A DNA stretch of 46,862 nt from Gammaproteobacteria bacterium (GTDB lineage: Bacteria > Pseudomonadota > Gammaproteobacteria > GCA-002705445 > GCA-002716945). The stretch covers positions 1 through 46,862 of the forward strand of contig CBFIBF010000005.1 in the NCBI GenBank assembly GCA_965660795.1, written 5' to 3'. The position numbers and the translations under genes are program-made. This document shows, piece by piece, positions 17,673 to 43,847 of this stretch. The notes beneath the pieces are model-generated. The model was not told the DNA's origin. It did no database searches and saw only the letters and a program-made list of their open reading frames with translations. Position 1 is the stretch's first letter; every line of letters starts with the position of its first letter.

Positions 17673-18080
17673 ATGCTTAATGAAATTAGATTAAATAAAG
17701 AGTCAAAACATAGTAAAAAACGAGTAGGCCGAGGCATTGCATCTGGCACCGGCAAAACATGTGGTCGTGGTCACAAAGGTCAAAAATCTAGAACAGGAGG
17801 AAAAGTCCAGGTTGGTTTCGAGGGTGGACAAATGCCTTTACAAAGAAGATTACCTAAAGTCGGTTTTACATCCAAAAAAAATACTAACACTGCAGAATTA
17901 AAGTACGATTATCTAGATAAAATAAAGGAATCTGAAATTACTCTTGAATTATTAAAGAAATATAAACTTGTTAATAATAAAATTACCAAAGTTAAGATAA
18001 TTGGTCCTGTATCTGTGAAAACAAAAAAGAAACTAATTGATGTTGTTGCAACAAAATCAGTTATGGAGTTTATTAAATAA
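17673..18080 (+). CDS. rplO: 50S ribosomal protein L15
   Basis: 135 aa from the ATG at 17673 ([40 protein letters not shown]). This start matches the E. coli L15 N-terminal length. The track start (TTG 17649) overlaps rpmD. Confidence 0.94.
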
Positions 18081-19429
18081 TGTCAAGAACAGCACCAAAC
18101 ATGCCGTCAAATTTTGGAGGTCTAACAAAATCCTCTGAACTTAGACAAAGAATTTTCTTTGTTATTTTCGCCCTGGTAGTTTTTAGATTAGGAAGCTTCA
18201 TTACTCTTCCTGGGATAGACCCAGCAGTTATGAGCTTTCTTTTTGAACAACAAAGAGGCAGCATTCTTGACATGTTTAATATGTTTTCTGGTGGCTCTCT
18301 ATCTAGAATGTCTATCTTTGCTCTTGGTGTTATGCCATATATTTCTGCATCAATCATCATACAAATGATGACACATATCTATGCCCCTTTAATACAGCTA
18401 AGAAAAGAGGGAGAGAGAGGTAGGAAAACAATAACAAAATATACAAGATACTTTACCCTTATACTGGCTTTACTACAGTCGATGGGCGTGATGAATGCTT
18501 TAATGAATCAAAATACCTCAACTACAACACTCGTTCTTGATCCAGGTGTTGGATTTTTTATCACCGGTGTTGTTACACTCGTGACAGGTACCATGTTCCT
18601 GATTTGGCTGGGTGAGCAAATTACTGAACGAGGTGTAGGAAACGGTATCTCAATAATAATTTTCGCAGGTATTGTAGCAGGTTTACCATCTGCGATTGGA
18701 GGTACAATTGAACTTGCAAGAAATGGAGAAATCCAAAACTTTAGCGTGATTTTGATTTTCCTATTAGCAATTATAATTACCGCATTTGTAGTCTACGTTG
18801 AAAGAGGTCAAAGAAAAATTCCTATAAACTACGCAAGAAAAATGCAAGGTAGAAAAATGTATGCTGCGCAAAGTAGTTTTCTACCCCTAAAGCTAAATAT
18901 GGCAGGTGTGATACCACCTATTTTCGCCTCTGCAATAATTTTATTTCCAGCTACAATCGCAAGCTGGTCAAGTTCAGGTTCACCCGATAGCATCGTGCAA
19001 AAAATTGCTATGACATTGTCACCCGGACAACCACCATATATTATGTTATATGCACTAGCTATTATATTTTTCTGTTTTTTTTATACTGCATTAGTCTTTA
19101 ATCCAAAAGAAACAGCTGACAACCTAAAAAAATCTGGTGCATTCATACCTGGAATTAGACCGGGAGATCAGACTGCAAAATATATTGATGGTATTACTAC
19201 CAAGCTAACAACAGTTGGCGCTATGTACATAACTGCAGTTTGTTTGCTTCCTGAATTCTTAATCTTATATTTTAACGTTCCATTTTATTTTGGAGGAACA
19301 TCTTTATTGATTGTGGTGGTTGTCGTGATGGATTTAATGGCCCAAGTTCAATCACACTTGTTATCACAACAGTATGAGGGAATGATGAAAAAAGCAAACC
19401 TAAGAGGAATTGGCGGAGGAATGCGATGA
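18080..19429 (+). CDS. secY: Preprotein translocase subunit SecY
   Basis: 449 aa, polytopic. [30 protein letters not shown], close to E. coli SecY. Confidence 0.98.
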
Positions 19430-19539
19430 AAGTAAGAGCTTCAGTGAAAAAATTATGCAGAAACTGTAGAATTATTAGAAGAAATCGAGTGGTTAGAGTT
19501 ATTTGTAAGGACCCCAGACACAAACAAAGACAAGGATAA
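19426..19539 (+). CDS. rpmJ: 50S ribosomal protein L36 (not in the ORF track, below its size cut-off)
   Basis: My own translation gives [37 protein letters not shown] (37 aa) with CxxC...C...H zinc ligands. The ATG overlaps the secY TGA (ATGA). Canonical position after secY. Confidence 0.93.
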
Positions 19540-31887: not shown

Positions 31888-34291
31888 GGTTTATCATCCA
31901 CAGGATATAGAAAAAATTGCTCAGAAAGAATGGCTGCGTAATCAAAATAATAACAATAAACTTCTAGATTCTAAAAATAAATATTACGTATTGAGCATGT
32001 TCCCTTATCCAAGTGGAAAACTTCACATGGGCCATGTAAGAAATTATACCATTGGTGACGTAATAACTAGGTCGCATAAGATGATTGGAAAGAATGTTTT
32101 CCAACCCATGGGTTGGGATGCCTTCGGTTTGCCTGCTGAGAATGCAGCCATTAAAAACAAAGTTCATCCTGAAGAATGGACTAAGAAAAATATTCTCCAT
32201 ATGAAATCTCAACTTGAAAACATTGGCATTCTATACGATTGGGACAATGAGATATCTACTGCAGACCCAGGTTATTTCAAGTGGGAGCAATGGTTTTTTC
32301 TACAATTACTAAAAAAAGGTTTGGTTTACAGGAAATTATCTGAAGTAAACTGGGACCCAGTTGATAAAACTGTTTTAGCAAATGAGCAAGTCATTGATGG
32401 AAAAGGCTGGAGATCTGGCGCAATTGTCGAGAGAAAAAAAATTCCTCAATGGTTCTTAAAGATTACCTCTTTTGCTGAACAATTATTAAACGATATTGAT
32501 AAGTTAAAAGGTTGGCCAGAATCTGTTAAAGTAATGCAAAAAAATTGGATTGGAAAGTCCAAAGGGCTGAATATTCATTTCGGGTCAGATAACTATGGAA
32601 CATTCACGGCATTCACAACCAGGCCTGACACACTCTTTGGTGTGACATATGTTGCAATCAGCATCAATCATAATCTTTCTCTTGATTTAGCTGAAAAAAA
32701 TCAAAATATTAAAAACTTCATCACAAAGTATCAAAAGCTTAAGCTCTCTGAAGAGTCCTCAGCAAAGCTCGAAAAGGATGGAATATATACTGGTATAAAC
32801 TGCATTCATCCTATAACTAAAAAAAATATACCAATATGGATTGCAAACTATGTCTTAGATAGTTATGGAACGGGTGTTGTTATGGGTGTTCCCGCACATG
32901 ATTCAAGAGATTTTGAGTTTGCAGAAAAGTTTAAATTGGAGATTATTCAAGTTATTGATGATGAAGAAGGTAAAAAACTACCTTATTTAGGTGATGGCAA
33001 ATTAATCAATTCACATGAGTTTGATAAGATTCATTCTCAAGAAGCTAAAATGCAAATATCAAAATACTGTACTGAGCAACATATTGGAGAAGAACTAATC
33101 ACCTATCGTCTTAGAGATTGGGGTATATCAAGACAGAGATATTGGGGAACCCCAATACCTGTTTTTTATCTTGATGATGGATCTGTCCATCCCATTCCGG
33201 AGGATCAGCTTCCTGTTGAATTACCAAAAGATATAGATTTAAATGGGGAAGGTAATCCTCTCGATAAATGTGAATCTTGGAAGAATATAACTTGCCCTTA
33301 TACTGGACAAAAAGCGACTAGAGAAACAGATACTTTTGATACTTTCTTTGAATCGTCCTGGTATTATTTAAGATTTCTAGATCCTAAAAATAACACTAAA
33401 ATGATGGATGACAAATATAAATCATGGTTACCTGTAGATCAGTATGTTGGCGGAATTGAACATGCGATTCTCCATCTCTTGTATGCTAGATTTTTCAACA
33501 AACTCTTAAAAGACGATGGTTTGATTGATAATGATGAACCCTTTATGTCATTGTTGTCTCAAGGCATGGTTCTTAAAGATGGATCAAAAATGTCAAAATC
33601 AAAAGGCAATACAATTGATCCTGATGAAATTATCGGAAAATATGGTGCAGATACTATTCGACTATTTATCTTATTCGCAGCGCCACCAGAACAAAACCTA
33701 GAGTGGTCAGACTCTGGAATTGAGGGGGGTTTTAAATTTTTGAAAAGGTTGTGGAATTTGACCCACCTTATCCACACATCATATGATCAAAATAATGATA
33801 AAGACATGCTCATACAATTAAAACATAACGAGGTAATAGACAAAGTAACAAATGATATTTTCAAAAGAAAATCTTATAACACTGCAATAGCAACAATTAT
33901 GGAATTTTATAACAGTCTAGCTAAAGCAATAGATAATAAAACAATTTCGGATAAAACAGCTAAAAAATGTATTAGCACTATTGCTAAACTACTTTATCCA
34001 ATTACACCTCATATATGCTATTCAATTTTATCAGTGATAGAATTTAATCAAGCTTTAAATCCCAGTTGGCCAGATAAAATTGAAGACATTGACTGCGACC
34101 AAGAAGTGCAAATAATTATTCAAATCAATGGTAAACTGAGAAGTAAAGTAATGGCACCAAAAGGAAGCAATGAGGATGTTATTATGAAAATAGCATCAAG
34201 TGACAAAAAAACTATAGAATATTTAACGAATGCAAATGTCATTAAAACAATATATATACCGAATAAACTTATCAACTATGTAATTAAATGA
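31880..34291 (+). CDS. leuS: Leucine--tRNA ligase
   Basis: 803 aa. HIGH-type motif (PSGKLHMGH) and KMSKS. Collinear with bacterial LeuRS. Confidence 0.98.
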   Translation: MNKVYHPQDIEKIAQKEWLRNQNNNNKLLDSKNKYYVLSMFPYPSGKLHMGHVRNYTIGDVITRSHKMIGKNVFQPMGWDAFGLPAENAAIKNKVHPEEWTKKNILHMKSQLENIGILYDWDNEISTADPGYFKWEQWFFLQLLKKGLVYRKLSEVNWDPVDKTVLANEQVIDGKGWRSGAIVERKKIPQWFLKITSFAEQLLNDIDKLKGWPESVKVMQKNWIGKSKGLNIHFGSDNYGTFTAFTTRPDTLFGVTYVAISINHNLSLDLAEKNQNIKNFITKYQKLKLSEESSAKLEKDGIYTGINCIHPITKKNIPIWIANYVLDSYGTGVVMGVPAHDSRDFEFAEKFKLEIIQVIDDEEGKKLPYLGDGKLINSHEFDKIHSQEAKMQISKYCTEQHIGEELITYRLRDWGISRQRYWGTPIPVFYLDDGSVHPIPEDQLPVELPKDIDLNGEGNPLDKCESWKNITCPYTGQKATRETDTFDTFFESSWYYLRFLDPKNNTKMMDDKYKSWLPVDQYVGGIEHAILHLLYARFFNKLLKDDGLIDNDEPFMSLLSQGMVLKDGSKMSKSKGNTIDPDEIIGKYGADTIRLFILFAAPPEQNLEWSDSGIEGGFKFLKRLWNLTHLIHTSYDQNNDKDMLIQLKHNEVIDKVTNDIFKRKSYNTAIATIMEFYNSLAKAIDNKTISDKTAKKCISTIAKLLYPITPHICYSILSVIEFNQALNPSWPDKIEDIDCDQEVQIIIQINGKLRSKVMAPKGSNEDVIMKIASSDKKTIEYLTNANVIKTIYIPNKLINYVIK

Positions 34292-34785
34292 GAAAACTTA
34301 CTCAAATCTTCATCTTATTATCAACGACCATAATCATGTCATCATGTGGTTACCAGTTAAGAGATAGTATAAATACAGATGGACTAAATCACGTTTTAAT
34401 TGCTGGTAGTTCGGAAAATGAAATTGTCAGGTTACTCCAACAAAAATTACCGGGTTCGAAATTAATTAGAAATGTAAGTGAAGAAAAATACCCTATTATA
34501 AAAATAATAAATATTAAAACTTCAAAAAGACAGTTATCAGTGAATTCATCTGGGAGAGCTGATGAATATGAGATAAGCAAAACCCTAGAGTATCAATTAA
34601 TATTACGCGATGGTGTCAAACAAACTGGTAACCTTTCTGCAAACGCATCATATGATTTCGATGAGTCACAAATGCAGGGAACCAAAGAGAAAGAAATCAT
34701 TGCTAACGATTCAATCACTAGAGCTTTAACAAGAAAGTTGGTTTTAAGACTTAAGTCAGCATTGAAAGCATCTAGCAATCAATAA
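34288..34785 (+). CDS. lptE: LPS-assembly lipoprotein LptE
   Basis: 165 aa. Signal peptide with lipobox IMSS|CGYQLR. Canonical position directly after leuS (ATGA overlap). Confidence 0.88.
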   Translation: MRKLTQIFILLSTTIIMSSCGYQLRDSINTDGLNHVLIAGSSENEIVRLLQQKLPGSKLIRNVSEEKYPIIKIINIKTSKRQLSVNSSGRADEYEISKTLEYQLILRDGVKQTGNLSANASYDFDESQMQGTKEKEIIANDSITRALTRKLVLRLKSALKASSNQ

Positions 34786-35467
34786 TAGGGGCGTATGGTT
34801 CAATTCTTGTTTTATCATGTTCGTGCATTCTATATTGCGTAAAATCTTTTAGGTTATTAAAATTAAAAAATGGATTACCTTGAATTTCTTCTTTAAGGGT
34901 TGAATTTCTTTTTATTGAATAATTATGCCCAGGCATAATGACAGTCTCTTTAGAGAGATTTTCTTTTAAATGCTTAAGTGATTTATACATCTCTTCTGGA
35001 CTACCTCCATGAAGGTCGCATCTGCCACATCCAAATACGAATAATGTATCACCCGCAATAAGATTACCATCAAATGAATAGCAGCATGAGCCGGGAGTAT
35101 GGCCAGGTGTATGTAGAGAGGAAATTTCTGTTGATCCTAATATTATTTTGTCATTTGAATTTGTTGTCAGTAAATTATCATACTCTTTAGACCAAAAGTC
35201 TGCTTCAAGTTTATTTATATGTATTGGAATATCATATTTCTTAAGTATTATATCAATCGAATTTACATGATCATGATGACTATGAGTGAGTAAAATTTTA
35301 CGTAACCTAAGCTTCTTTCTGTCTATGAAATTTAGCACTTCCGTTAAGTCCCATGCAGGATCAACTATTGCGGTTTCCCTAGTTTTATTGTCCCATATTA
35401 GATAAACAATATTTAACATAGGACCAACATCAAATGTTTTAACAGACAATGTATTTATAGCTTGCAT
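34772..35467 (-). CDS. MBL-fold metallo-hydrolase (glyoxalase II / YcbL-like)
   Basis: 231 aa. THSHHDH (HxHxDH), downstream TPGHTPG, GDTLF and GHNY metal/substrate motifs. Its 3' end overlaps the lptE 3' end by 14 nt. Confidence 0.85.
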   Translation of the reverse strand: MQAINTLSVKTFDVGPMLNIVYLIWDNKTRETAIVDPAWDLTEVLNFIDRKKLRLRKILLTHSHHDHVNSIDIILKKYDIPIHINKLEADFWSKEYDNLLTTNSNDKIILGSTEISSLHTPGHTPGSCCYSFDGNLIAGDTLFVFGCGRCDLHGGSPEEMYKSLKHLKENLSKETVIMPGHNYSIKRNSTLKEEIQGNPFFNFNNLKDFTQYRMHEHDKTRIEPYAPIIDC

Positions 35468-35502
35468 ACATTATCATTATAATATAACTTGATTGAATAT
35501 TT

Positions 35503-35793
35503 ATGACTGAAATAGTACTAAAACCAGAGTTACTAAAAAACCTTCAAAAAGTTCTTGTAGATTATGAACCAAAAAATGAGGATCCTATTTTAGCATCCCA
35601 ATATTTATCTGCCGTGGTAGGATCAATTGTCGCAACAGCTGAAATACCCAAGAAAGATAGAGATGATATTCTTAAACAGTTAATTGATTTTACACAATAT
35701 GTCTATGATCAACAGACGGAAACTCTTTCAGAAGAAAGCAAAGATTCGACATCATCAACAGATGAAGCCTATGGCGTCTGGAAACCAGAATAA
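35503..35793 (+). CDS. Hypothetical small acidic protein
   Basis: 96-aa ORF with no family I recognise and a Ser/Asp/Glu-rich C-terminal third. Codon usage looks like its neighbours. There is no obvious SD. Confidence 0.5.
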   Translation: MTEIVLKPELLKNLQKVLVDYEPKNEDPILASQYLSAVVGSIVATAEIPKKDRDDILKQLIDFTQYVYDQQTETLSEESKDSTSSTDEAYGVWKPE

Positions 35794-35796
35794 CCA

Positions 35797-36810
35797 CTAA
35801 TATTTTAAAATATCTTTTATAACAGCAGGACCTTTATAGACAAGCCCAGTATAAAGCTGTATTAAATCAGCTCCATTTTTAAATTTTTCATTAGCAGACT
35901 CCCATGAGTCTATTCCACCTACACCGATAATAGTTTTATCCTTACTAATTTTATTATTAACTTGTTTAAGTATCTCATTGGATTTATTTAGTAGAGGCTT
36001 ACCACTCAGCCCACCTTGTATGTTATTAAATTTTTCTGAAATTTCTGATTTGTCTATAGTAGTATTCGTACAAATAACCCCATCAACTTCATATTTATCT
36101 ATAAGCATTGATAATTCAGAGATAGTATCATTGGAAATATCAGGAGCGATTTTTATAACTAAAGGAGTATATTTTTTATATACCTTTCTTAGATTATTAT
36201 GAAGCTTCTTTATTGAGCACAATAATTCCTCCATGTTTTCACCTTTCTGTAAATCTCTTAAGTTTTTAGTATTCGGCGAAGAAACATTTAAGGTTATATA
36301 ATCAGCTACAGCATATGCTTTTCTTAAACAGTACTCGTAATCATGAAAAGCATCTTGAATTCTTGTAGTTGCATTTTTACCAATATTAATTCCAATTGGA
36401 ATTTTTTTACTAAATTTTTTTATTTGATCAATTGCATAATCTATACCTTTATTATTAAAACCCAAATGGTTAATTATCGCTTCATCATCAACTATCCTAA
36501 ATACCCTTGGCTTAGGATTACCAAGTTGTGGTTTGGGAGTAAGAGTACCAACTTCGATAAAACCAAAACCTATATTTGAAATAAAATTCAGATAGTCCGC
36601 ATTTTTGTCAAATCCAGCAGCAAGTCCAACTGGATTATCAAAAACAATATCAAATTGTTTAGTTTTATTTTTTATGATCTTTTTATGCAAAAGTTTACCG
36701 ATATAGCTTCGGTATATTAGATCCAAACTTGCAAGAGATATATCATGAGCTTTTTCTGGGTCTAGTTTAAATGCAATATTTTTAAAAAGCTGAAAAATTA
36801 ATTTATTCAA
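35797..36810 (-). CDS. pyrD: Dihydroorotate dehydrogenase (quinone), class 2 (TTG start)
   Basis: 337 aa. The N-terminus (FKLDPEKAHD) aligns with E. coli PyrD (FQLDPERAHE). GLAAGFDKN, GFIEVGT, NVSSPNT. The only in-frame start near the N-terminus is TTG at 36810. Confidence 0.94.
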   Translation of the reverse strand: MNKLIFQLFKNIAFKLDPEKAHDISLASLDLIYRSYIGKLLHKKIIKNKTKQFDIVFDNPVGLAAGFDKNADYLNFISNIGFGFIEVGTLTPKPQLGNPKPRVFRIVDDEAIINHLGFNNKGIDYAIDQIKKFSKKIPIGINIGKNATTRIQDAFHDYEYCLRKAYAVADYITLNVSSPNTKNLRDLQKGENMEELLCSIKKLHNNLRKVYKKYTPLVIKIAPDISNDTISELSMLIDKYEVDGVICTNTTIDKSEISEKFNNIQGGLSGKPLLNKSNEILKQVNNKISKDKTIIGVGGIDSWESANEKFKNGADLIQLYTGLVYKGPAVIKDILKY

Positions 36811-36824
36811 AACATATACTCAAA

Positions 36825-36843
36825 GATAACAAGAATCATTATC
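36825..36843. promoter_or_regulatory. Fur box (16/19 match to GATAATGATAATCATTATC)
   Basis: GATAACAAGAATCATTATC. The right half-site is a perfect 9/9, the centre matches, and the left half is 6/9. It lies 15-33 nt upstream of the pyrD start codon, in the pyrD/rubrerythrin divergent region. Confidence 0.6.
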
Positions 36844-36869
36844 ATCTTATCTATAATAGCAGAAAATAT

Positions 36870-36907
36870 TTGACATATATATTTTATAAATTTAGAATCA
36901 TTCTAAA
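36870..36907 (+). promoter_or_regulatory. Rubrerythrin-operon promoter (TTGACA-17-TAGAAT) overlapped by the perfect palindrome TTTAGAATCATTCTAAA (Irr ICE-like / Fur-family 7-1-7 operator)
   Basis: -35 at 36870-36875, -10 at 36893-36898, palindrome at 36891-36907. SD AGGAG at 36917-36921 and ATG at 36928. Confidence 0.65.
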
Positions 36908-36927
36908 TAATAATTTAGGAGAATATT

Positions 36928-37347
36928 ATGAGCTTAAAAGGTTCAAAAACAGAACAAAACCTAAAAGATGCATTTGCTGGTGAGTCACAAGCGAATAGAC
37001 GTTATCTTTACTTTGCGGCAAAAGCTGATGTAGAAGGACAAAACGACATAGCTACCGTATTTCGTTCAACAGCTGAAGGAGAAACTGGGCATGCTCATGG
37101 TCACCTTGAGTATCTTGAAAAAGAATGTGGTGACCCAGCAACAGGTGAACCTATCGGTGATAGCGTATCTAACTTGAAAGCAGCTATAGCTGGAGAAACT
37201 CATGAGTATACAGATATGTATCCTGGAATGGCAAAGACAGCTAGAGATGAAGGCCATGATGAAATAGCTGACTGGTTTGAAACTCTTGCTAAAGCTGAAA
37301 GATCTCATGCTAATCGTTTTACAAAAGCATTGGAATCAATCTCATAA
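36928..37347 (+). CDS. Rubrerythrin-family diiron protein without a rubredoxin domain (erythrin-type)
   Basis: 139 aa. [26 protein letters not shown]. Two E...ExxH ligand sets (ETGH, ERSH). No CxxC pairs. Confidence 0.9.
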
Positions 37348-37353
37348 CTTTAA

Positions 37354-37386
37354 GTTCTAGTGAGCGACTATATCGCTCACTAGAGC
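37354..37386 (+). other. GC-rich stem-loop between the rubrerythrin and Fe-S genes (possible attenuator or processing/stability element)
   Basis: CTAGTGAGCGA (37357-37367), 5-nt loop, TCGCTCACTAG (37373-37383). Extendable to 14 bp with one G-U pair. Only a short TTTT lies 8 nt downstream, so it is not a canonical intrinsic terminator. Confidence 0.4.
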
Positions 37387-37405
37387 AGAGAATTTTGGAA
37401 ATAGA

Positions 37406-38728
37406 ATGGACGTAACTAATAAAAACACAACCACAGAAGGCGGATTAGAAAAACCAACCAGGCATATAATTGATTGGAAAAATCCTGACTTTTTAAATGA
37501 AGAAAAGTATGAGCAAGAGCTTAGAAGGGTTGCTGACGCATGTCACGGATGTAGACGTTGTGTTAGCTTATGTAACTCATTTCCAAGCCTGTTTGATTTG
37601 ATAGATAATTCTGAGACTTTTGAAGTTGATGGTGTAGCTTACGAACAGTTTAGTTCTGTAGTTGATCATTGCTATCTTTGTGATTTATGCTTTATGACGA
37701 AGTGCCCTTATGTACCACCACATGAATGGGAAATAGATTTTCCTCATCTTATGTTGAGGGGTAAAGCTATAAAGGATTCAAAAAAGAAAACAACATTAAG
37801 AGACAAAATCCTTTCATCTACAGACTTGCTCGGTAGATTATTTTCAAGACCACTAATTTCGAGTTTTGTTAACTTTTTTAATGGTTTGAAACTTTTCAGA
37901 AAGTTACTAACCTTATTTGGTATTCATCAAAACGCTAAACTACCTAAATTTGTGTCTAAGACTGCTAAAAATTTAGAGCTCATGAACCATGTTGATAATG
38001 CATCACACAAAGTTGCTATATATACAACTTGTTATCATAATTATAACGAACCTGGTGTAATTAAAGATTTCTATGACATTTTAAAACATAACAATGTGAC
38101 TGTAGATATAATCTCTCAAGACAACTGTTGTGGTATGCCTAAGCTTGAACTGGGAAATATTACTAAAGTGGAAGAGATGATGAAAAATAATCTCCCGCAG
38201 TTTAAAAAATATGTAGATGATGGTTATCTAATAATAGCACCCATACCTTCTTGCGTATTAATGTATAAACAGGAGTTGCCATTACTATTTCCCGACAACC
38301 AAGATCTTATTAATGTATCACAATCATTTAGAGACCCATTTGAATTTTTGAATATGCTAAATGATAAAGGAACATTAAAAAAAGATTTCAAAGCAAAACT
38401 TGGTAATATTTCTTATCAGGTCGCATGTCACCAAAGGGTACAAAACTTTGGGATGTTGACAAAAAAAATTCTCGAATTAATACCAGGAACAAAAGTTGAT
38501 GCATTAGAACGTTGTTCTGGACATGATGGTACGTATGGCGTCAAGTTAGAAACACATGATATTGCAATCAAAATTGCCAAACCCATAACTAAAGCATTCA
38601 AAGATGCAAATTTTGATAGCTTTACGAGCGATTGTTCGTTAGCTGCTCATCATATTGAAAATTCATTGGGTAACATGCAGGCGCCTGAACATCCAATTAG
38701 TCTAATTAAAAAAGCATACGGAATATAA
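37406..38728 (+). CDS. HdrD/GlpC-like iron-sulfur oxidoreductase (2x[4Fe-4S] ferredoxin motifs plus two CCG domains)
   Basis: 440 aa. CHGCRRCVSLC and CYLCDLCFMTKCP. Cysteine-rich CCG-type segments (TTCYH..NCCGMP..PSCV and VACHQ..RCSGHDG..SDCS). Confidence 0.85.
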   Translation: MDVTNKNTTTEGGLEKPTRHIIDWKNPDFLNEEKYEQELRRVADACHGCRRCVSLCNSFPSLFDLIDNSETFEVDGVAYEQFSSVVDHCYLCDLCFMTKCPYVPPHEWEIDFPHLMLRGKAIKDSKKKTTLRDKILSSTDLLGRLFSRPLISSFVNFFNGLKLFRKLLTLFGIHQNAKLPKFVSKTAKNLELMNHVDNASHKVAIYTTCYHNYNEPGVIKDFYDILKHNNVTVDIISQDNCCGMPKLELGNITKVEEMMKNNLPQFKKYVDDGYLIIAPIPSCVLMYKQELPLLFPDNQDLINVSQSFRDPFEFLNMLNDKGTLKKDFKAKLGNISYQVACHQRVQNFGMLTKKILELIPGTKVDALERCSGHDGTYGVKLETHDIAIKIAKPITKAFKDANFDSFTSDCSLAAHHIENSLGNMQAPEHPISLIKKAYGI

Positions 38729-38730
38729 AA

Positions 38731-39312
38731 ATGAAATTAGAAATATCAAACTTACTATCGCTTGAAGAGTATGATTCTGAAAGAGAAAATTTAAAAAAAG
38801 ATGTTATCAATCATAAAAAAAATAGGACTGTAAGTATAGGAGACAACATTGTTCTTATATTTGAGGACTTCAAAACAATTAAATATCAAGTACAAGAGAT
38901 GCTTCGTATTGAGAAAATATTTAAAAAAGATGAAATACAAGAAGAAATTGATGCCTACAATCCTCTTATACCAGATGGTACGAATCTGAAAGCGACTATG
39001 TTAATAATGTATCCTGATGTAGAAGTAAGGAGACAAATGCTTCTTAAACTTCATGACATTGAAAACAATATTTGGATATCTGTTGGTCAAAAAAAGGTTA
39101 TTGCTTTTGCAGACGAAGATTTAGATAGAAGCACTGATGAAAAAACATCCGCCGTACACTTTTTAAGGTTTCAGTTCACTCATGACGAGGTAACTGAATT
39201 TCTATCCAGCGATAAAATAGTAGTCGGGGTTAACCACAAAGAGTATGATAAAGAAATAATTCTTGATAAGGCTGTTAAAGAAAGTCTTGAAAAAGATTTT
39301 AAGTCTAGTTAA
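38731..39312 (+). CDS. DUF3501-family protein (function unknown)
   Basis: 193 aa. The pattern EMLRIEKIF...EIDAYNPLIPDGTNLKATMLI...EKTSAVHFLRFQF matches my recollection of DUF3501 proteins that accompany rubrerythrin / Fe-S gene pairs. Starts 2 nt after the upstream gene. Confidence 0.7.
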   Translation: MKLEISNLLSLEEYDSERENLKKDVINHKKNRTVSIGDNIVLIFEDFKTIKYQVQEMLRIEKIFKKDEIQEEIDAYNPLIPDGTNLKATMLIMYPDVEVRRQMLLKLHDIENNIWISVGQKKVIAFADEDLDRSTDEKTSAVHFLRFQFTHDEVTEFLSSDKIVVGVNHKEYDKEIILDKAVKESLEKDFKSS

Positions 39313-39315
39313 TTT

Positions 39316-39714
39316 TTACTTATTTCTAACTTTAATAAGTACTTCTGTGCTTTCAATTTGCAAGTTTTTAGGCAATTCAGGAAAATCTGAAAATACTACT
39401 TGGTCATGATCTACATCAGTTAGTGTACTCATAGTCGTGTTGTATAAATGATGATGGTTATCTAAATTTGTATCATAAAATTTTAAATCATTTTCAATGT
39501 TGATAGTTTTTAGCATTCCTTTTGACTCCAATAAAGATAAAGTATTGTAAATAGTTGCCATGGAAATGTTTAAGCGCTTCTTGTCTGCTACAGAGATAAG
39601 GTCAGCAGCTGTAAAATGTTGTTTTTTAGAAAAAATTAACTTAGCTAAATCAACCCTCTGTTTTGTAGGGGTAACATTCAGTTTTCTGTATATTGTTTCG
39701 TACTTATTTTCCAT
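39316..39714 (-). CDS. Fur-family transcriptional regulator, cysteine-free Irr-like subtype
   Basis: 132 aa. Winged-helix segment (TPTKQRVDLAKLIF...ISMATIYNTL..LE.KGML), then FYDTNLDNHHHLY and C-terminal FPELPKNLQIESTEVLIKVRNK. No Cys at all, so no CxxC zinc site. Collinear with rhizobial Irr as I recall it. Confidence 0.8.
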   Translation of the reverse strand: MENKYETIYRKLNVTPTKQRVDLAKLIFSKKQHFTAADLISVADKKRLNISMATIYNTLSLLESKGMLKTINIENDLKFYDTNLDNHHHLYNTTMSTLTDVDHDQVVFSDFPELPKNLQIESTEVLIKVRNK

Positions 39715-39754
39715 ATACGAGAATTATAATATATTAATATACAAATCTTAATAT

Positions 39755-40642
39755 CTAATTATGTAATTTTTCTAATATTTTATGTATGGCTGATGAATCT
39801 AAATCTGATAAATTTTCTTGTTCTGCTAATTTCATTAATTTCTTTACATGATTTAAACCTTTTAAATTAATTTCCAATTGCTTTGTAAGGTTTTTGGCTA
39901 TCTTTAAATCCTTATGATGGAGAGACAGTTTAAATCCGGGGTTAAAGTCTGAATTAATCATTCTCAAGCCATGGATATCGAGTATTTTGCTATTAGCATA
40001 TCCTGCTAGGAGCGCCTCTCTAATTAGTCTAGGGTCAATATTTGATTTTTTCGCAATATTTATGATTTCACTTATTGATTGAATAGTTTGTGCAACTAAT
40101 ATTTGATTGCACGCCTTGCATACCTGACCTGAGCCACTATCACCGATATATGTAATTTTTTTGCCAACAGCGGCAAGAACATATTTGATTTTTTGATATA
40201 TCTTTTTGTCACCACCAACCATAATTGATAAAGCGCCAGATATCGCACCAGCCTCTCCACCAGATACAGGCGCATCTATGAAATATGAATTCTTTGCACT
40301 TAAGCTAGCATTTATCTCTCTAGCGCCTTGAGGTGAGATAGTGCTCATATCTATAACAATATATCCTTCTCTTATATTATTTATCAAGCCTCTCTTACCT
40401 GTTACTATTTGTTTTACATCTTTGGTATTTGGAAGATTGGTTATAGATAATGATGTGTAGTTAGGAATTTCTTCGATAGCAGAAATAAAAATTCCTCCTG
40501 CAGTTACAACCTCATCAATTATATTTTTTTTTCTAGCAAAGAAGTAAACCTCAAAATTATTTTTGATAAGATTTAAAACCATGGGTTTACCCATGATACC
40601 TAAGCCAATGAAACCAACTTTATATTTTTTACCACTTTTCAT
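39755..40642 (-). CDS. NAD(P)-dependent beta-hydroxyacid dehydrogenase (3-hydroxyisobutyrate / tartronate-semialdehyde reductase family)
   Basis: 295 aa. Rossmann motif VGFIGLGIMG, DAPVSGG, and the catalytic-Lys region GSGQVCKACNQ. Confidence 0.88.
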   Translation of the reverse strand: MKSGKKYKVGFIGLGIMGKPMVLNLIKNNFEVYFFARKKNIIDEVVTAGGIFISAIEEIPNYTSLSITNLPNTKDVKQIVTGKRGLINNIREGYIVIDMSTISPQGAREINASLSAKNSYFIDAPVSGGEAGAISGALSIMVGGDKKIYQKIKYVLAAVGKKITYIGDSGSGQVCKACNQILVAQTIQSISEIINIAKKSNIDPRLIREALLAGYANSKILDIHGLRMINSDFNPGFKLSLHHKDLKIAKNLTKQLEINLKGLNHVKKLMKLAEQENLSDLDSSAIHKILEKLHN

Positions 40643-40644
40643 TA

Positions 40645-41622
40645 ATGATCTATAGTATAATTGAGTATATGATATTTGATTACGTTAAATTCAAAAAATC
40701 TCAACTTTCTACTGAATCACCACTATACTTCATTCACGGAAATCCGAGAAATATAAGTAATGAAATTGAGCATGATATTTTAAATTTCTTTCAAAAATTG
40801 GGCTACAAATCGATGAACTATGTTATTGATGATGATTCCCAAATACAAAAACTTGAGAGTTTATTCAATGAACAATCATTGTTTAATGAGAACAAAATTA
40901 TTATATTGAATATACTATCGAACTCTATTTCTATTAAAATGAAAAGATTTATAGAGACAAGGGTTGAAATATGCACTGATGACAAAATTATCTTAAAATT
41001 AGACCGACAAGCATCATCATTCAAAAAAACTAATTTTTATAAGAAGGTTAGTCAATATGCTTGTGTAATTGAAATATTTGAATTAAAAAACGAAGTTCTC
41101 AAACAATGGTCTCTCAACAAATGTAAAGTTAATAAGGTAGATATAAGCGACTCTGATCTCGAGGAACTTATGAATTCTAATTTTAATAACAGTTTATCAA
41201 TTGCTCAGAATATATACATTCAAAGTCTAATGAATAGCAATCAGCTGTTTCATGGACAAGAGGGGTCTAAGTATTCTGAATATGATTTAGTGGACATGTT
41301 TTTAAGCAGGAATACTCTCGAGTTCATTCGAGCTAGCAACTACCTCAGATCAAATGATACGTCTTTGTCATATATAATATTTCTTTTAAATTCTGAATTA
41401 GAAAAACTTTACTCATTAATTAAACCAGTGAAATATAGACCATATATTCCATCATTCCTATTAAATAAATATTTACAAATCTCTAAAAAATTCTCTCCGG
41501 AAAAAATATTATCTGCAATAAATAATATTGCTACACTTGATGCAAATTCAAAGTACAATCTTAAAAAGTCTAATCCATGGGAGTCTTTTAACTCTATGTT
41601 TTTAGATTTAATGAAAAGTTAG
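40645..41622 (+). CDS. holA: DNA polymerase III delta subunit
   Basis: 325 aa (317 aa if it starts at the ATG at 40669). Divergent, but collinear with E. coli HolA (N-terminal ..LYFIHGN..; length; the position that normally follows lptE). The start is uncertain. Confidence 0.75.
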   Translation: MIYSIIEYMIFDYVKFKKSQLSTESPLYFIHGNPRNISNEIEHDILNFFQKLGYKSMNYVIDDDSQIQKLESLFNEQSLFNENKIIILNILSNSISIKMKRFIETRVEICTDDKIILKLDRQASSFKKTNFYKKVSQYACVIEIFELKNEVLKQWSLNKCKVNKVDISDSDLEELMNSNFNNSLSIAQNIYIQSLMNSNQLFHGQEGSKYSEYDLVDMFLSRNTLEFIRASNYLRSNDTSLSYIIFLLNSELEKLYSLIKPVKYRPYIPSFLLNKYLQISKKFSPEKILSAINNIATLDANSKYNLKKSNPWESFNSMFLDLMKS

Positions 41623-41624
41623 TC

Positions 41625-42890
41625 ATGGATAAATTACAAATCAAGAAATATGTAAATCTGGTTTGCATCAATTCATATAAGGCAAGCAAATTTGCCAGAA
41701 TATTATCTAATACCCATAGAAATATGGTTTTATCTACAATTATTTCAGGGCTTAAAGACAACAAAACTCAAATCTTTAAAAAAAACGCCCTAGATATTAT
41801 AAATGCTAAAAATAATAAAATGTCTGATGCTCTCATTGATAGGCTGCTGATTAATAATAAAAGAATCTTATCAATGGTTGATGGCCTACGAAAAATTAAA
41901 TCTATACCCGATACACTATTTAAAACATCCAACAAGATCAAACAACCTAGCGGCATTACAGTTGAACAAATGAGAGTCCCACTTGGAGTAATAGGAATGA
42001 TTTATGAATCAAGACCTAATGTTACTATTGATTCAGCAGGTTTATCCATTAAATCCGGAAACTGTATTATATTGAGAGGAGGTAGCGAAGCCATTAACTC
42101 TAATTTAATACTCTCAAAGATAATTATGGATTCTCTCAAAAAATGCAATTTACCAAAAGATATGGTTCAGTTGATAAAAACTACTGATAGAGCTGCTGTT
42201 ACTGAGTTACTATCACAAGATCAATATATTGATGTAATAATACCTAGAGGAGGCAAGAGTCTTATTAAAAAAATTTCTAATGAGTCTAAAATTCCTGTAA
42301 TAAAGCATTTAGATGGTAATTGTCATGTATATATTGATGTTGATGCTGAATTCAAAACTGCGATGGATTGTACTATTAATTCAAAAACACAAAGATATGG
42401 GGTGTGCAATGCAGCTGAGTCTTTAATCATACATAAGAAATTTCCTAAATCTCAAACTACAAAAATATTAAATGCTTTGAGCGAACAAGGTGTGGAAATA
42501 AGAGGCTGCAAAGCGACTAAAAGTATTTTTAAAAAAGCGGTTTTAGCAAATGAGGCAGATTGGTACGAGGAATATCTGAAGCCGATTATCTCTGTAAAAA
42601 TTGTTGATAATATCGATGAGGCCATAAATCATATTGAAAAATATGGTAGTAAACACACTGATTCAATAATCACAAAAAATAAATTATCCCAAAGAAAATT
42701 CTTAAGAGAGGTTGACTCAAGTTCAGTTATGATAAACACATCCACACGATTTGCAGATGGCTTCGAATATGGAATGGGAGCAGAGATTGGAATCAGTACA
42801 GATAAAATCCATGCAAGAGGACCAGTTGGTCTTGACGGTCTCACAAATTTAAAATTTGTTGTCACTAGTAAAGGAGTGATTAGAAATTAA
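41625..42890 (+). CDS. proA: Gamma-glutamyl phosphate reductase
   Basis: 421 aa. RVPLGVIGMIYESRPNVT, catalytic Cys in YGVCNAAESL, HTDSIIT. Confidence 0.96.
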   Translation: MDKLQIKKYVNLVCINSYKASKFARILSNTHRNMVLSTIISGLKDNKTQIFKKNALDIINAKNNKMSDALIDRLLINNKRILSMVDGLRKIKSIPDTLFKTSNKIKQPSGITVEQMRVPLGVIGMIYESRPNVTIDSAGLSIKSGNCIILRGGSEAINSNLILSKIIMDSLKKCNLPKDMVQLIKTTDRAAVTELLSQDQYIDVIIPRGGKSLIKKISNESKIPVIKHLDGNCHVYIDVDAEFKTAMDCTINSKTQRYGVCNAAESLIIHKKFPKSQTTKILNALSEQGVEIRGCKATKSIFKKAVLANEADWYEEYLKPIISVKIVDNIDEAINHIEKYGSKHTDSIITKNKLSQRKFLREVDSSSVMINTSTRFADGFEYGMGAEIGISTDKIHARGPVGLDGLTNLKFVVTSKGVIRN

Positions 42891-43515
42891 AAAAAATAAC
42901 ATAGGAATATATCTTGGCTCTTTTGATCCAGTGCACACAGCGCACATTAATATTCCTCTTCAACTCAAAGATGATTATAGTCTCGAGAAAATAATATTTG
43001 TCCCAACTGGTACATCACCTGTAGGTAAAACCTTTAAAGCAACTTGCAGCGATAGGGTTGCAATGTTAATAAATGCAACCAAGAGGTATAGTTTTTTTGA
43101 TGTTAGTGAGTATGAAATAAATTCATCAGGACCTTCTTTTTCAATAGATACGGTACAGCATTTTAAAAAAAAATATTGTAATTCACGCATTAGATTACTG
43201 ATAGGAGAAGATAATTTTACTGGTTTCAATAACTGGTTTAAGTATGAGCAGATATTACTTATTACTAATATAATTGTTCTGGCTAGAAACGATGTCCCTA
43301 AATATGGTAGCATAGAGGCATTGAACAGATGCGTCGAAAAGGATATTGACTCGTTTAACAGAGCTGAAGCAAATAAAATACACTTCTCTGCTAAGTATAA
43401 AATTGATATTTCATCTACCATGATAAGAAAAAATCTTCTTGAAAATAAATCGATACAAGAATCTGTCTGTAATGAAGTCTATGAATATATTAGAAAGAAA
43501 GGTTTATACAAATGA
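42886..43515 (+). CDS. nadD: Nicotinate-nucleotide adenylyltransferase, probable ATT start
   Basis: The track ORF starts at GTG 42931, inside the conserved nucleotidyltransferase motif. The same frame is open from 42880 and encodes IGIYLGSFDPVHTAH. The only plausible initiator is ATT at 42886, 9 nt after AAGGAG (42871-42876). That gives 209 aa against 213 in E. coli. Confidence 0.8.
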   Translation: MKKNNIGIYLGSFDPVHTAHINIPLQLKDDYSLEKIIFVPTGTSPVGKTFKATCSDRVAMLINATKRYSFFDVSEYEINSSGPSFSIDTVQHFKKKYCNSRIRLLIGEDNFTGFNNWFKYEQILLITNIIVLARNDVPKYGSIEALNRCVEKDIDSFNRAEANKIHFSAKYKIDISSTMIRKNLLENKSIQESVCNEVYEYIRKKGLYK

Positions 43516-43847
43516 TACTTAATGACGAAATAAGCCTTCTACTTGAAGAGTACAAAGCAGAAAATGTAATTAAACTAGATGTCAAAGATAAGTCTTCCAT
43601 AACTGATACAATGATAATTGCTTCTGGTAGATCAACTAGGCATGTAAAATCTATTGCTGATAATATTATCAAGAAACTTAAGAAGATAAAAGTCAAGCCT
43701 CTTGGTATTGAGGGTTATGCTAAATCTGAGTGGGTGCTCATAGATTTTGGTGACGTGCTAGTTCACGTAATGCATCCAGATGCAAGAGAATTTTACTCTC
43801 TCGAAAAATTATGGGACGAAAGTATAAATAACGAACAAATGGTTTGA
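43512..43847 (+). CDS. rsfS: Ribosomal silencing factor RsfS
   Basis: 111 aa. DTMIIASGRSTRHVKSIAD...WVLIDFGDVLVHVM..DAREFYSLEKLW. Follows nadD, as in most proteobacteria. Confidence 0.94.
   Translation: MILNDEISLLLEEYKAENVIKLDVKDKSSITDTMIIASGRSTRHVKSIADNIIKKLKKIKVKPLGIEGYAKSEWVLIDFGDVLVHVMHPDAREFYSLEKLWDESINNEQMV

Follow-up and report, generated by a model that had tools for sequence, protein, structure and literature searches.

Do Irr-type regulators and their operators occur outside the Alphaproteobacteria, and, if so, what do they control? This question is raised by a contig of a Gammaproteobacteria bacterium (CBFIBF010000005.1, assembly GCA_965660795.1), whose positions 1 to 46,862 (hereafter the window, i.e., the whole stretch of DNA analyzed) encode a cysteine-free Fur-family protein of 132 amino acids (aa) with an NHHH motif and no CxxC. 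Irr and its operator, the iron control element (ICE), have been regarded as an alphaproteobacterial speciality since a regulon reconstruction of 2006, in which they were not found in other bacteria (PMC1698941). An initial annotation of the window had described these features of the protein correctly and had proposed that it is an Irr-like regulator, either acquired horizontally together with a target operon or marking an unrecognized Irr lineage outside the Alphaproteobacteria. We found that the gene for this protein (the window regulator) adjoins an operon for an aerobic-type rubrerythrin that carries a perfect ICE in its promoter and that regulator, ICE, and rubrerythrin recur together in both classes. 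From these observations, the Irr-operator-rubrerythrin module of Alphaproteobacteria appears also to exist, as a long-standing resident, in Gammaproteobacteria.

A perfect ICE in the promoter of the neighboring rubrerythrin operon

The regulator gene is convergent to an operon encoding rubrerythrin (rbr), RFO, and a DUF3501 protein (Table 1), with the stop codons of the DUF3501 and regulator genes only 3 nucleotides (nt) apart. The three operon genes are co-localized and have the matching Pfam domains, as in the aerobic-type Rbr-RFO-DUF3501 cluster described by Cardenas et al. in 2016, where RFO was named (PMC5114695). The ICE, with the consensus TTTAGAA-N3-TTCTAAA, is the Irr site in Bradyrhizobium japonicum (PMC1698941). 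The guess that the regulator has a target operon nearby was borne out by a perfect ICE, TTTAGAATCATTCTAAA, in the rubrerythrin promoter, 20 nt upstream of the ATG; this is the sole ICE match at ≤1 mismatch in the window (0.13 expected). Both the −10 hexamer of this promoter (36893 to 36898) and the expected transcription start lie inside the ICE palindrome, which is the geometry of a putative repressor operator.

The region upstream of rbr was aligned for seven loci, namely, the window, four loci whose regulators are 83 to 95% identical to the window regulator (L001 and L084 to L086), and two sisters at 59% (L002) and 54% (L003). The TTGACA hexamer and the element TTTAGAAT[C/G]ATTCTAAAT are kept in all seven while the flanks diverge, over a span of regulator identity of 54 to 100%, and the half-sites have the exact ICE form (TTAGAAT) in every one of them. 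The Per box (TTATAATNATTATAA) and the ICE are both 7-1-7 palindromes. They differ by 2 mismatches, one per half-site, and the window contains 5 matches to the Per box at 2 mismatches versus 2.5 expected.

A Fur-box-like element lies between the start of pyrD (36810, minus strand) and the rbr −35 hexamer, 27 nt upstream of the latter. It is the only match in the window at ≤3 mismatches (0.12 expected; 10 of 100 shuffles reach at least one), and the block containing it is kept across the window lineage and partly in L002 and L003. The element hints at a possible second input, through Fur, to rbr and/or pyrD and points to a canonical Fur encoded elsewhere in the genome. Upstream of the regulator gene itself, no ICE-like site was found at ≤3 mismatches, so ICE-mediated autoregulation is not supported. 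There (39715 to 39757, minus strand) 8 nt separate the end of the −10 hexamer of a putative promoter from the ATG, and a Shine-Dalgarno sequence is absent. Given this spacing, the regulator mRNA might lack a leader; alternatively, the gene is perhaps cotranscribed with the upstream HIBADH-like gene, from which it is separated by a 40-nt gap; the adjacency of these two genes is also found in L002, L003, and L088.

Table 1. Positions of the regulator gene, the rubrerythrin operon, and associated elements in the window
Feature	Position	Strand	Basis
Cysteine-free Irr/PerR-branch Fur-family regulator gene	39316..39714	-	ATG-start open reading frame (ORF), 132 aa; Pfam FUR, E = 1.7e-17
Aerobic-type rubrerythrin (rbr), 139 aa, without rubredoxin domain	36928..37347	+	Pfam Rubrerythrin, 5.4e-29
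RFO, GlpC/HdrD-like CCG-domain Fe-S protein	37406..38728	+	Pfam CCG, 1.7e-13; NCBIfam GlpC-like under cutoff
DUF3501 protein, third gene of the operon	38731..39312	+	Pfam DUF3501, 2.1e-64
Putative operator, perfect ICE TTTAGAATCATTCTAAA	36891..36907	.	Consensus search of the window
Sigma-70-type rbr promoter, TTGACA-17-TAGAAT	36870..36898	+	Best promoter-like site in 36700-39800, 11/12
Fur-box-like element GATAACAAGAATCATTATC	36825..36843	.	16/19 to consensus GATAATGATAATCATTATC; membership in the system uncertain
Putative regulator-gene promoter, TTAAGA-17-TATAAT	39723..39751	-	Consensus match only, 10/12
holA-position ORF	40645-41622		No Pfam match

The operon products themselves show unequal divergence. 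The rubrerythrin is 79 to 96% identical to the copies encoded beside Irr-type genes in both classes (L002, L003, L012, L024, L036, and L082), and its exact sequence is found on at least 1,000 contigs; unlike it, the cotranscribed RFO (38 to 67%) and DUF3501 protein (32 to 65%) diverge normally. In L084 (4939 to 5488), a window-lineage contig assembled from long reads, the DUF3501 gene is split into two ORFs of 90 and 65 aa; L085, L086, and the window have it whole (193 aa). Either the gene carries a frameshift or has become a pseudogene, or the split is an artifact of assembly or polishing.

The window regulator belongs to a cysteine-less Irr/PerR branch

Since a search of 5.8 billion proteins recovered 382 homologs of the window regulator, its reading frame is a real gene and not a chance ORF. 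More than 100 of the homologs listed are likewise 132 aa long and 81 to 100% identical, and they come from marine metagenomes, including Tara; several are encoded on contigs 0.98 to 1.2 Mb long. The translation includes FYDTNLDNHHHLY and the stretch KFYDTNLDNHHHLYNTT and ends with FPELPKNLQIESTEVLIKVRNK. The rhizobial Irr pattern from which the initial annotation had argued fits a Rhizobium giardinii protein that we retrieved (...TYFDTNVSDHHHFF...LPEPPEGMEIAHVDVVIRLRPK). In a MAFFT alignment, the four zinc-site cysteines of Bacillus subtilis PerR fall on N92, M95, a gap, and V129 of the window regulator; thus, N92/M95 stand at the positions of PerR C96/C99, and the C-terminal CxxC is missing. 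One 132-aa metagenomic relative (P0162) is Irr-like in its C-terminal two-thirds and has an unrelated N terminus in which the PTxQR helix is missing; its gene is possibly chimeric or misassembled.

Among the curated NCBIfam models, IrrA (NF045678; 107.7 bits) and Irr (NF045677; 107.5 bits) scored best with the window regulator. They were followed by the PerR models (PerRA, 77.6 bits; PerRB, 64.6 bits; and two others, 49.7 and 39.5 bits), all under their cutoffs of 200 bits for PerRA, 250 for PerRB, and 180 to 200 for the others, while the Fur models gave 16.8 to 36.7 bits and Zur gave 19.0 bits (cutoffs, 146 to 220). We calibrated the two Irr models, whose cutoffs are 150 (IrrA) and 170 (Irr) bits, with ten relatives retrieved from genomes. 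The five alphaproteobacterial proteins (a Bradyrhizobium-type Irr with the GCPWHD heme motif, those of Rhizobium giardinii and Ruegeria, and two encoded beside rubrerythrin) pass at 180 to 232 bits, and the four gammaproteobacterial proteins and one from Nitrospirae stay under the cutoff, like the window regulator, at 111 to 134 bits. In a tblastn search of plasmid records, every annotated match was an alphaproteobacterial IrrA or Irr.

The best PDB sequence match is the PerR of Leptospira interrogans (5NL9; 56 bits), with the runner-up at 33 bits and B. subtilis PerR at 28.9 bits. An AlphaFold2 model built with 26 relatives (mean predicted local distance difference test, 93.9; predicted template modeling [TM] score, 0.82) has a winged helix and a dimerization domain. 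In Foldseek, its best match is again 5NL9 (E = 4.4e-9; TM, 0.72; identity, 23%), ahead of Fur, Mur, and PerR structures, and all of the top matches are Fur-family proteins.

In alignments of the 26 relatives, H33, D81, H87, H89, and D100 are invariant. They align to H37, D85, H91, H93, and D104 of B. subtilis PerR, its established regulatory-site ligands, in contrast to E. coli Fur, which has E81 and E101, and N57 aligns to Asn61 of PerR, the Fur counterpart being Arg57 (the PerR and Fur reference sequences were confirmed against PDB entries 2fe3, 8j6w, and 4mtd). Canonical Irr proteins carry these ligand residues too. The His cluster H87-H88-H89 is real, as the initial annotation had it, but its link to heme binding does not follow, because H87 and H89 correspond to the PerR metal ligands H91 and H93 and a comparable cluster exists in PerR (HYH) and Leptospira PerRA (HHHH); HHH is thus not diagnostic.

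Sequence signatures separate the alphaproteobacterial Irr proteins, which have F-x5-H with RH, S-L-A-T, and (H/N)QF after YNTL, from a gamma-type group that shares F-x4-H with QH, S-K/R-A-T, and xLF with Leptospira PerRA. In the window lineage, the spacing and QH of the gamma type, with xLL or xLF after YNTL, are combined with a distinct S-M/Q-A-T. Hidden Markov models (HMMs) of the two groups were built without the window lineage, and a set of AT-rich marine alpha-type proteins prefers the alpha-Irr HMM, opposite to the window regulator. Trees were made by neighbor joining (NJ) on 137 columns, with 100 bootstraps and with 60 replicates after Dayhoff-6 recoding. A cysteine-less superclade of alphaproteobacterial Irr, the gamma-type group, PerRA, and the window lineage stands apart from the Fur, PerR, and Zur references in 73/100 bootstraps and 56/60 recoded replicates. 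Within the superclade, the window lineage groups with its 54 to 59% sisters in 88/100 bootstraps, the alphaproteobacterial Irr clade appears in 57/100, and PerRA nests among the gamma-type sequences. The raw NJ tree also joined the window lineage to the AT-rich marine alpha-type sequences. We rejected this grouping as compositional or long-branch attraction because it received 29/100 bootstraps and 1/60 recoded replicates and conflicts with the HMM preference and the indel state.

Collectively, the profiles, residues, and trees support the assignment of the window regulator to a cysteine-less Irr/PerR branch rather than to Fur, Zur, or Mur. It lies outside the alphaproteobacterial Irr/IrrA equivalogs when judged by the curated thresholds and the signatures; it probably belongs to a sister assemblage, mainly gammaproteobacterial, beside and not inside that family.

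Regulator, ICE, and rubrerythrin recur together in two classes

We compared 80 genome loci, among the matches listed from a profile search of genome contigs with a 10-sequence alignment, together with loci fetched by protein identity, by which the window's own lineage was separately retrieved. An Irr-type gene adjoins rbr-RFO-DUF3501 in at least 18 loci of this combined set. The regulator is convergent to the operon in the window lineage, its sisters, and a Chromatiales metagenome-assembled genome (MAG; L012), whereas irr precedes rbr in the same direction in at least nine alphaproteobacterial loci (Kiloniellaceae, Rhodospirillaceae, Rhodobiaceae, Dongiaceae, and others). An AT-rich alpha-type locus (L082) likewise reads irr-ICE-rbr-RFO-DUF3501 in one direction. 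Among the matches listed, 17 of 18 Irr-adjacent loci have an ICE-like site (≤3/14 mismatches) within 250 bp upstream of rbr, compared with about 6% of random 250-bp windows of these loci at ≤3 mismatches. The alphaproteobacterial Irr copies beside the operon pass the curated IrrA/Irr cutoffs. This pairing of ICE and rbr matches the minimal Irr regulon predicted in 2006 for Pelagibacter, Rhodospirillum, and Magnetospirillum, consisting of a rubrerythrin-like or cytochrome c peroxidase gene (PMC1698941).

A variant of the arrangement was seen in L083 (872 to 3511), where an AT-rich alpha-type Irr homolog (P0135) lies directly upstream of katG, encoding a 710-aa catalase-peroxidase (Pfam peroxidase), and the spacer between them holds an ICE with one mismatch, ATTAGAATCGTTCTAAA. 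This is a further candidate single-target pairing with peroxide defense.

Probable residence of the module in Gammaproteobacteria

The chromosome around the module is not alpha-like, as the initial annotation had noted: secY (18080 to 19429) is followed by rpmJ (19426 to 19539), rpsM, rpsK, rpsD, rpoA, and rplQ, with no adk. The cluster-mates, at the level of 90% or above, of SecY, L17, UvrA, LeuS, and ProA are labeled "Gammaproteobacteria bacterium" by NCBI. The GC content of the window is about 0.28 to 0.38, and the locus matches its flanks without anomaly. As to the taxonomic distribution, for which the initial annotation had called, the closest matches to the window regulator in the genome search, among the matches listed, are all Gammaproteobacteria MAGs, the top two at 59 and 54%. 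Those at 43 to 33% include MAGs labeled Woeseiaceae, Chromatiaceae, Ectothiorhodospiraceae, Thiohalophilus, Thioalkalispiraceae, Thiogranum, Sedimenticolaceae, and Steroidobacteraceae, with one Betaproteobacteria MAG, and the gammaproteobacterial matches rank above or interleave with alphaproteobacterial Irr at 29 to 39%. Dozens of gammaproteobacterial MAGs encode a relative of the regulator.

The partner genes give the same picture. The RFO and DUF3501 protein are 49 and 46% identical, respectively, to those of the Chromatiales locus L012, versus 38 to 41% and 32 to 37% for the alphaproteobacterial copies (39 and 34% for L082). The gene order lptE, gloB-like, pyrD, rbr operon, irr, HIBADH-like, holA-position ORF, proA, nadD, and rsfS is kept in L001 to L003 and L084 to L088. 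Since RFO and DUF3501 are nearer to Chromatiales, the convergent orientation is shared, and the synteny is stable, we favor a resident gammaproteobacterial lineage over a recent transfer from Alphaproteobacteria; the data point to the module being a resident and probably vertically inherited feature of this pelagic lineage. An ancient cross-class transfer of the whole module is possible.

In the window (34288 to 43847), the run leuS-lptE...holA-nadD-rsfS, which follows the E. coli gene order and is typical of Gammaproteobacteria, is broken between lptE and the holA-position ORF. The insert of about 5.8 kb contains a metallo-beta-lactamase-fold gene, a 96-aa ORF, pyrD, the rbr operon, the regulator, and the HIBADH-like gene. 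In addition, proA stands between the holA-position ORF and nadD, and the interrupted arrangement is kept in L001 and L084 to L086. Elsewhere, in about 13 to 15 of 35 nonalphaproteobacterial loci (including L004, L006 to L008, L011, and L013 to L015), the gamma-type regulator is preceded codirectionally, at 30 to 200 nt, by a gene for a DAO-family FAD oxidoreductase, with type IV minor-pilin genes (GspH/FimT-like and PilW) nearby. The neighbor clustering used naive ORF calls, which are unreliable in GC-rich loci, and the DAO and minor-pilin neighbors were Pfam-checked on two loci. Their conserved position informs synteny rather than function and suggests vertical inheritance in Chromatiales- or Woeseiaceae-like Gammaproteobacteria.

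Proposed mechanism and alternative explanations

We propose that the window regulator is a local Irr-like repressor that acts at the ICE of the rbr operon, answers to an iron or heme signal, and is part of a resident gammaproteobacterial module, and we give this reading as a whole a probability of about one-half. The dimeric, cysteine-free metalloregulator would serve as the local repressor of the neighboring rbr-RFO-DUF3501 peroxide-reductase operon. Its DNA-binding form would occupy the ICE, covering the −10 hexamer together with the expected start, and thereby exclude RNA polymerase, and the signal would be read at the conserved His/Asp site formed by H33, D81, H87, H88, H89, and D100. In an Irr-like mode, the protein would be bound to DNA when iron or heme is scarce and would leave the operator when heme, or iron with an oxidant, engages HHH, such that the iron-costly di-iron/Fe-S peroxidase is made only when iron allows. 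In B. japonicum Irr, heme at His117 to His119 lowers the affinity for DNA and triggers oxidative degradation (PMC11442138). That the protein represses from the ICE is, in our judgment, the quite probable part of the proposal. As to the presumed signal, we prefer an Irr-like one only modestly, because Irr is the best profile, the half-sites are those of an exact ICE, and a bona fide alphaproteobacterial Irr stands at the same type of operon.

A number of observations weigh against this reading. The regulator falls below both curated Irr/IrrA cutoffs (107.7 and 107.5 versus 150 and 170 bits), its signature states are those of the gamma-type group and PerRA and not of alphaproteobacterial Irr, and the group HMMs prefer the gamma type by 17 bits (143.0 versus 125.7). 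The initial proposal of an Irr-like protein therefore stands as regards the best curated matches and not as regards membership in the family proper. The closest solved structure, 5NL9, is a peroxide sensor, and all five ligands and HHH are equally PerR-type. NJ on 137 columns gives no firm deep order for the alphaproteobacterial, gamma-type, and window lineages. The Cys-Pro heme regulatory motif is absent. This N-terminal motif is confined to the Bradyrhizobiaceae subtype and is missing from most Irr proteins (PMC1698941), so its absence does not bar Irr membership. The operator of Leptospira perRA has been reported to be Irr-box-like (PMC8638967). Finally, in Pelagibacter, the closest ecological analog with an Irr-ICE-rbr module, iron limitation raised rbr mRNA 1.57-fold (PMC2864753), opposite to what a simple repression at low iron would give.

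Much of this would be expected if the protein were instead a PerR-like peroxide sensor that holds Fe2+ or Mn2+ at H33/D81/H87/H89/D100 and derepresses the operon, independently of heme, when H2O2 oxidizes a ligand histidine. We regard this as a real, if lesser, possibility. The regulator has the five B. subtilis PerR ligands and, in its recognition helix, the PerR-type Asn, with Asp at position 100 where Fur has Glu; the cysteine-less Leptospira PerR is the best PDB match by both sequence and fold, PerRA is the second-best NCBIfam family, and PerRA shares the gamma-type states and, in the NJ tree, falls among sequences of that group. The target operon serves to scavenge peroxide, an AT-rich relative of the regulator (L083) adjoins katG, where an ICE with one mismatch is present, and the ICE is one base per half-site away from the Per box. 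Moreover, the Irr-box-like perRA operator (PMC8638967) and the failure of low iron to repress Pelagibacter rbr (PMC2864753) would fit, and the Fur-box-like element at the rbr promoter could provide an iron input separately. However, the Irr profiles are ahead of PerRA by about 30 bits and the PerRA cutoff of 200 is missed by far, the half-sites have the exact ICE form and not the Per-box form in all seven lineage loci, and it is a bona fide alphaproteobacterial Irr that occurs at the same operon type with the same site. An ordinary Fur, Zur, or Mur paralog that became Irr-like only through AT-biased drift and cysteine loss seems to us hardly credible. Fur-family membership and the fast evolution of streamlined, AT-rich genomes speak for it, but the Fur and Zur models reach 17 to 37 bits versus 107 for Irr, the recognition helix has Asn rather than Arg, and the ligands are Asp rather than Glu. 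The cysteine-less superclade also separates from the Fur, PerR, and Zur references (73/100; recoded, 56/60), and the adjacent operator is an ICE, with a distinct Fur-box-like site besides.

The remaining alternative concerns origin and not function: a recent horizontal acquisition of the regulator and the rbr operon from an alphaproteobacterium, such as co-occurring SAR11, would account for the raw NJ grouping with AT-rich marine sequences of alpha-type features, the irr-ICE-rbr-RFO-DUF3501 order of the AT-rich L082, the 80 to 84% identity of the rubrerythrin between alphaproteobacterial and gammaproteobacterial copies, and the position of the module in a block interrupting the gamma-typical leuS-lptE...holA-nadD-rsfS run. 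We consider it improbable, since that grouping (29/100 bootstraps; 1/60 recoded) looks compositional, and the AT-rich sequences prefer the alpha HMM while the window lineage prefers the gamma HMM. Further, RFO and DUF3501 are 39%/34% identical to those of L082 versus 49%/46% to those of L012, the orientation is convergent here and in L012 but codirectional in alphaproteobacteria, synteny is kept down to 54 to 59% regulator identity, and the GC content matches the flanks. Acquisition together with the target operon, one of the two origins offered by the initial annotation, is thus not upheld as a recent event. Going beyond the resident Irr-like repressor that we favor, one may speculate, though we rather doubt it, that the cysteine-free regulators of Gammaproteobacteria, the Betaproteobacteria and Nitrospirae MAGs, and PerRA form a distinct class intermediate between Irr and PerR that shares an ICE-type operator. 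The regulator-ICE-rbr/RFO/DUF3501 unit would then be an ancient proteobacterial module, cut down separately to a one-operon regulon in SAR11 and in this gammaproteobacterium, and the gammaproteobacterial regulator would combine peroxide or heme sensing with a separate Fur input.

Implications

Homologs of the window regulator carry the JGI label "Fur family iron response transcriptional regulator." With this label and a prediction for Acidithiobacillus published in 2008 (PMC2631029), a gammaproteobacterial Irr-like lineage is not wholly unrecognized; of the second origin offered by the initial annotation, the placement outside the Alphaproteobacteria fits, and the claim of being unrecognized does not. 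Our literature search, which was incomplete in coverage, found no experimental study of the gamma-type assemblage and nothing relevant on Irr in Gammaproteobacteria or SAR86 except the Acidithiobacillus prediction. What is added here is a perfect and conserved operator, a defined overlap with the promoter, the recurrence of the module across classes, and evidence for its residence in Gammaproteobacteria, so that a complete regulator-operator-target unit is now documented in an abundant, uncultured pelagic gammaproteobacterium. It offers a concrete cis element for the way in which a streamlined ocean heterotroph might couple an iron-expensive peroxide defense to its iron, heme, or oxidant status. 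It also connects DUF3501 and RFO, the poorly understood partners of aerobic rubrerythrin, with a defined regulator in both classes. Finally, since the window regulator has the shared ligand set alone, the question of how a heme-sensing Irr differs from a peroxide-sensing PerR can be asked in a minimal system with one operator.

Comparison with known systems

The Irr-type regulator of Acidithiobacillus (Osorio et al. 2008; PMC2631029) is, like the window regulator, an Irr-like protein predicted outside the Alphaproteobacteria, and it was predicted earlier; it differs in that the portion of that report available to us describes no link to an ICE or rubrerythrin. B. subtilis PerR shares with the window regulator the five regulatory ligands and the recognition-helix Asn (N61). 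Its operator is a 7-1-7 palindrome one base per half-site from the ICE, but its Cys4 zinc site is missing here and the overall similarity is low (28.9 bits). PerRA of Leptospira interrogans (5NL9), an atypical PerR without the structural metal site, is a spirochete regulator of catalase and peroxidase genes. Like the window regulator, it lacks cysteines, has a His cluster (HHHH versus HHH), and shows the QH and xLF states. It is different in its Foldseek identity of 23% and in the 77.6 bits that its model gives to the window regulator against a cutoff of 200. We know of no link of Leptospira PerRA to rubrerythrin-RFO-DUF3501. Its autoregulatory site is a further likeness, having been reported as Irr-box-like (PMC8638967).

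The alphaproteobacterial Irr/IrrA proteins (e.g., B. japonicum Irr and Rhizobium leguminosarum IrrA) and the window regulator are all Fur-family proteins of about 130 to 160 aa that lack the CxxC zinc site and have the YxDTN..HHH motif and an LPxxPxG...V.I+V+ C terminus. They also have in common the TTTAGAA-N3-TTCTAAA operator and the rbr-RFO-DUF3501 target, which adjoins bona fide alphaproteobacterial Irr in at least nine loci. The window regulator differs from them in its identity of 30 to 39%, its scores under the 150- and 170-bit cutoffs, the lack of the Cys-Pro motif, an F..H spacing shorter by one residue, and the states QH, SMAT, and xLL/xLF where they have RH, SLAT, and (H/N)QF, respectively, as well as in its gammaproteobacterial host and the convergent rather than upstream codirectional position of its gene. 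Between the window and "Candidatus Pelagibacter ubique," the host class and gene arrangement differ, the window regulator is about 36% identical to the copy in the AT-rich alpha-type locus L082, and Pelagibacter rbr mRNA is slightly elevated under iron limitation (PMC2864753). In other respects the parallel is close: both organisms are streamlined and pelagic, and just as rubrerythrin is the sole ICE target predicted for Pelagibacter by Rodionov et al. in 2006 (PMC1698941), the sole ICE in the 46.9-kb window stands at rbr.

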